Translations under genes and position numbers: made by a program
NCBI GenBank assembly: GCA_024679065.1
Contig: JAGIQG010000003.1
Span: forward strand, 21,948,001-22,012,000
Reading direction: 5' to 3'
DNA from: Sphyrna mokarran
Lineage: Eukaryota
Length of the DNA stretch: 64,000 nt
Shown here: in pieces, positions 47,473-47,505 of the stretch
Position numbering within the stretch: the first letter of the stretch is position 1
How the letters are laid out: each line of letters begins with the position of its first letter
The notes under the pieces: model-generated
What the model saw: the letters and a program-made list of their open reading frames with translations, nothing else
The model's database searches: none
Told to the model about the DNA's origin: nothing

Positions 47473-47505
47473 ATTGCCATCTACTGGGCTATGTATGGCA
47501 CTGCC
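47473..47505 (-). promoter_or_regulatory. CTCF binding site with upstream (ZF9-11) module
   Basis: The - strand reads GGCAGTGCC-ATACAT-AGC-CCAGTAGATGGCA. The core fits CCASYAGRKGGCR exactly and the GCAGTNCC upstream motif is at the canonical spacing. Confidence 0.75.

Follow-up and report, generated by a model that had tools for sequence, protein, structure and literature searches.

Our analysis of a 64,000-nucleotide stretch of Sphyrna mokarran DNA (the window) revealed a two-part (M1+M2) CTCF motif at 47472–47506 on the minus strand, upstream of the inferred EVI1 start of the MECOM gene, in which a core with a significant MA0139.1 score is combined at canonical spacing with a module that matches the upstream consensus at 8 of 10 letters. 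We hold with moderate confidence, from the sequence and its surroundings, that this motif represents the orthologous, CTCF-bound promoter-proximal anchor of EVI1, acting as a promoter tether. The comparison with human suggests that the EVI1 docking point may be as old as the jawed vertebrates. We infer CTCF binding, base-level orthology, looping and any effect on expression in the shark from the following features.

38001–54000, no strand: CpG-retaining, repeat-poor domain containing the motif and the promoter, from CpG observed/expected ratios and self-repeat comparison.
47472–47490, minus strand: CTCF core motif (ZF3–7) in the MA0139.1 19-mer frame, which scores highest in the window with either of two backgrounds and whose bases were ranked position by position.
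47497–47506, minus strand: upstream module (U/M2, ZF9–11), matching at 8 of 10 letters at linker 6 only, 6 bp from the core frame.
47794–47852, plus strand: probable conserved block with similarity to L2 and L1, the human deletion guides on the promoter side, from guide matches.
50085, plus strand: inferred start of EVI1 exon 1a, obtained by subtracting 181 from the RARE start, as the human element begins at +182 (PMC2779989), assuming no indels.
50266–50282, plus strand: inverted DR5 retinoic-acid response element (RARE), with both half-sites identical to those of the human EVI1 exon-1a RARE.
54032–54163, plus strand: coding exon of MECOM for the C-terminal part of its PR/SET domain, approximately residues 126–169 of MDS1-EVI1, from protein comparison, tblastn and AG/GT ends.

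On the evidence of its exon peptide, the host gene is elasmobranch MECOM. The exon at 54032–54163 is 132 bp long and flanked by AG and GT, and its peptide matched MECOM in the PDB with an E value of 7.4e-20 vs 6.2e-10 for PRDM16, which excludes PRDM16 as the host gene. The top 9 of 20 relatives of the peptide were shark and ray MECOM proteins, 93–96% identical to it. A tblastn search with four MECOM proteins found no other coding exon of the gene in the window. Since this lone exon starts near residue 126, the MDS1 coding exons lie beyond the window, and MDS1 intron makes up the sequence upstream of the promoter. Compared with human and chimaera MECOM, the exon lacks one codon, a deletion common to the shark and ray proteins among the matches listed.

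The RARE at 50266–50282 is the sole match in the window and contains no half-site mismatch, where 0.11 matches would be expected even with one mismatch allowed. In human, the element lies at +182 to +198 of EVI1 exon 1a (PMC2779989). The offset of 181 bp is an assumption for the shark, because the 5' flank of a published human primer that seemingly ends in a RARE half-site is, by eye, unlike the shark sequence. The motif lies 2776–2794 bp from the RARE, a distance in agreement with the 2.7–2.8 kb given in the first-pass annotation of this DNA, and its position relative to the inferred start is 2595–2613 bp upstream. The non-consensus first half-site of the RARE has been kept between shark and human while its flank seems to have diverged, and direct retinoic-acid control of EVI1 may, as this comparison suggests, be ancestral; the available part of PMC2779989 uses the word “conserved” once, about the gene. 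An everted pair of nuclear-receptor-like half-sites (TGACC-A-GGTCA) is located at 50472–50482, approximately 190 bp past the RARE.

On the minus strand, the motif consists of AGGCAGTGCC (upstream module, 47506–47497), the linker ATACAT and AGCCCAGTAGATGGCAATC (19-mer core, 47490–47472). MECOM is encoded on the plus strand, so the motif faces upstream: its core points to lower coordinates, into the MDS1 intron. The core was scored with an MA0139.1 matrix (column sums 908–913), and was the top match in the 64-kb window under both backgrounds, at 14.0 bits (p 6.4e-6) and 14.9 bits (p 2.7e-6). With this matrix, the score amounts to 14.9 of 29.8 bits, and 0.34–0.81 such matches are expected per window. 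Each of the central 13 positions carries a first- or second-choice base (second choice at five of them), and disfavoured bases occupy flank positions 1, 3 and 17; the core, which had been described as perfect, is the best in the window rather than a perfect match. An equal core was found in 164 of 300 dinucleotide-shuffled windows. The MA0139 scan proposed in the first-pass annotation thus ranks the core first, at a level that is, for the core by itself, that of chance.

The combination of core and module, in contrast to the core by itself, is above chance level. We take CTGCAGTKCC to be the global form of the CTCF upstream-module consensus and counted letter matches to it. IL3 examples of this module are from PMC12885311. 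The shark module matches 8 of the 10 letters at linker 6, lacking the T of TGCAG and reading GGCAG instead, and the match falls to 1–3 of 10 at the other linkers (2–5 and 7–9). A match of 8/10 is reached at 108 of 127982 positions in the window. Among the 25 core matches of at least 7 bits, a module of at least 8/10 accompanies one, the minus-strand site at 47472–47506, and none of the 300 shuffled windows contained core and module together. The claim that a correctly spaced module accompanies the core on the minus strand was therefore borne out.

The dimensions of the motif resemble those of known two-part CTCF sites, which make up 13–15% of CTCF sites (PMC12885311, available text). A 9-bp module, the linker and the core span 34 bp, with a half-site distance of approximately 21 bp counted by hand, and PMC3531215 describes the M1+M2 motif as 34 bp long with a half-site distance of 21–22 bp. 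The shark site shares with this class the core, a 6-bp linker within the stated range of 2–7 bp and the 34-bp span, but differs in that its module contains GGCAG, not TGCAG, and its core score is moderate.

The motif is embedded in a distinct sequence domain. The CpG observed/expected ratio was 0.42–0.75 in all eight 2-kb bins of 38001–54000 vs 0.10–0.43 across the remaining 24 bins. Self-repeats within 38336–55066 amounted to a single SINE-like copy and a single 37-bp match. The SINE-like copy nearest to the motif lies at 45592–45894, and 45895–55066 contains no self-match. Repeat status was judged by self-comparison of the window, which would miss repeats with no second copy in it; on this measure the motif lies outside any repeat shared with the rest of the window and does not appear repeat-derived, and the description of its surroundings as TE-free holds against the window's own repeats alone. 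No tandem or notable local repeat was found at the motif site, and no Rfam match was found anywhere in the window. A coding explanation of the motif was rejected, as the stop-to-stop frames beside it (47101–47457) and covering it (47433–47696, 87 aa) had no support, and the tblastn search with four MECOM proteins gave 54032–54163 as the sole true exon. The CpG and repeat pattern of 38001–54000 would fit an unmethylated developmental-gene domain. The 16-kb domain extends approximately 12 kb upstream of the inferred EVI1 start, like a methylation valley, and conserved enhancers may be present at 38.3–45.5 kb.

According to the available text of PMC8479123, the human EVI1 TSS has a “forward” CTCF site 2.6 kb upstream that is needed for looping and expression and through which leukaemia cells acquire enhancers, in agreement with the docking site described in the first-pass annotation. 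This site is convergent with the sites of MYC enhancers placed 5' of EVI1, and thus it faces upstream. The shark motif shares with this site (CTCF EVI1_PR) the gene, the direction and the distance, being 2.6 kb upstream of an inferred start. The agreement in spacing (2595–2613 bp in shark vs 2.6 kb in human) is conditional on exon 1a being the TSS of PMC8479123 and on the 181-bp offset. Five EVI1 start sites are listed in PMC13246443, and none is named as the TSS in the available text of PMC8479123; if the human 2.6 kb were counted from a start located more 3', the match in distance would be coincidental. Human binding and function were established by ChIP, CRISPR and 4C; the shark site is a prediction from sequence.

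Our comparison with human rests on 15 distinct published oligos, of which three guides were tested against shuffles and the others were inspected by eye. Guide L2 matches 16 of 20 bases at 47830–47849, followed by AGG (the PAM is kept), at a distance of 340 bp from the motif towards the promoter. This is its best match in the window; equal matches were found for 26 of 1000 shuffled guides window-wide and for 0 of 1000 within 46500–48500, and the binomial p is 0.002–0.02 after correction for 15 oligos, with L2 chosen by eye. Guide L1 matches 13 of 19 bases at 47795–47813 on the same strand, 16 bp further upstream than L2 (hand count; p approximately 0.03). The shark motif lies beyond this block, and would be on the correct side of 47794–47852 if “L” denotes the promoter side. 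Shark matches of the human guide at the motif (739/1000 shuffles) and of guide R2 (972/1000 shuffles) were at chance level, so that one of the three guides tested, the one selected by eye, matched the shark region above chance. By eye, the remaining human oligos, including primers, showed nothing beyond chance in the shark region, L1 aside. The human oligos beside the motif are GC-rich and, unlike L2, do not match the shark flanks. The opposite strand of the human guide described as “close to” the motif contains GCAGCGCC, which by eye resembles the shark module at 7 of 8 letters; this likeness is a lead only, as the human core could equally sit on the other side of the guide.

These comparisons bear on whether the shark bases descend from those of the human site. 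A bound CTCF site with the same job in the same place might have arisen by turnover within a constrained promoter domain, as would be allowed by the flanks of the shark motif, which resemble the guide at the human motif no more than chance predicts, and CTCF sites are known to spread and change with lineage-specific repeats (PMC5504073, available text). We regard this as unlikely, since the two spacings differ by no more than the rounding of 2.6 kb, the human guide contains a module-like word (by eye) and the L2 block lies 340 bp from the motif. Descent from a common site, as proposed in the first-pass annotation, is supported by the gene identity, the elasmobranch origin, the RARE, the distance, the direction and the nearby block resembling a human deletion guide, and stands as the preferred reading rather than as an established identity.

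Under the preferred reading, core and module would be bound by CTCF in a domain of low methylation. As it faces upstream, the motif would halt cohesin that moves in from the MDS1 intron, and the base of the resulting loops would hold the EVI1 promoter, which lies 2.6 kb behind the motif. These loops may bring intronic and distal enhancers to the promoter. The required machinery exists, since the available texts describe the two-part CTCF motif as pan-vertebrate (PMC5504073) and report that skates have oriented CTCF sites at TAD borders, loop extrusion and conserved Hox domains (PMC10115646). The skate sites share with our proposal CTCF-oriented loop extrusion in a cartilaginous fish but differ from it in that their conservation was described at the level of domains, not of single promoter-proximal sites traced to human. 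A promoter-proximal CTCF site a few kb upstream of another gene reportedly gathers distal enhancers; its placement is similar and its gene is different. Motif scanning by itself failed to predict CTCF sites within human Hox clusters (PMC5504073, available text).

The simple upstream-facing picture is weakened by two observations. In inv(3) the enhancer comes to lie 3' of EVI1, and the human site is needed there too (PMC8479123), so the first-pass claim that the site docks upstream enhancers by facing upstream holds for the direction and is incomplete as an account of the human site. Module-bearing sites are characteristic of insulators, with the strongest block when they face the enhancer (PMC12885311), which is the geometry found in the shark. 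The site may accordingly be orthologous and bound with a native role mainly in insulation, shielding the EVI1 promoter from MDS1-intron enhancers or separating the two MECOM promoters, and docking would be specific to leukaemia. This is quite unlikely in our estimate: in t(3;8) and inv(3) cells, EVI1 and looping fall when the human site is deleted or mutated (PMC8479123), the site is reported to be important for long-range contacts in unrearranged loci as well, with an enhancer close to the promoter of MDS1 (second-hand, PMC13246443), and the shark motif lies inside the CpG-rich domain, not at its edge. A chance, unbound motif is highly improbable: an equal core is expected 0.73 times per shuffled window and the window was picked from a screen of many, in which coincidences can be selected, but the joint expectation with a module at canonical spacing is approximately 0.001 per window, and a core of equal quality, within 800 bp around the position predicted and with the predicted orientation, occurred in 29 of 5000 shuffles.

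The promoter tether can be extended, tentatively and at somewhat less than even chances, to the whole promoter region. The CTCF site, the ZF9–11 module, the block 0.3 kb away and the RARE would form one promoter layout whose spacing has been kept within approximately 100 bp since the shark–human split. Because the guide that silences EVI1 in leukaemia models overlaps the module in this extended reading, the docking site would be ancient, two-part and of the insulator type, and would serve to tether the promoter. If so, its conserved bases could be targeted singly.

The human EVI1 site and the two-part CTCF class are already known, and CTCF-based folding is already established as deeply conserved in cartilaginous fish. 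A 2018 paper on shark genomes reportedly includes shark CTCF ChIP data. We found no report of the EVI1 CTCF site in cartilaginous fish in the MECOM/EVI1–CTCF literature covered, which included few subscription journals and in part the best 15 of 279 matches. The available texts of bioRxiv 2022.04.15.488491, PMC12628035, PMC10553128 and bioRxiv 2026.10.19.760054 are silent on whether this site is conserved; its conservation may already be visible in public genome alignments. If the preferred reading is true, the site left intact by 3q26 leukaemias is a part of the locus kept for approximately 420–450 million years and not a mammalian accident. It would indicate a normal developmental job for the EVI1 CTCF site, with a native role testable in mouse or fish, and would point to the core, the module and the block at 47794–47852 as the bases that matter. 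The shark site would be a dated example of a known mechanism, and the mechanism itself is unchanged.

We also observed several features of the repeats in and around the locus. A weak CTCF-like core (8.7 bits) at 63552–63570 lies in a SINE-like copy with a 7/10 module at linker 6, and is probably a chance likeness of the SINE head. Residues 370–432 of the skate MECOM protein model P0010 match the SINE-like copies of the window, which suggests an exonised repeat or an annotation error. The stretch at 2001–8000 is AT-rich with a strong G-over-C skew (0.20–0.50) and many short GGAAT/TTTG words without a tandem array, and is perhaps a decayed satellite. A tandem array of seven copies of a 39-bp unit, 97% alike, adjoins SINE-like sequence at 14324–14595.
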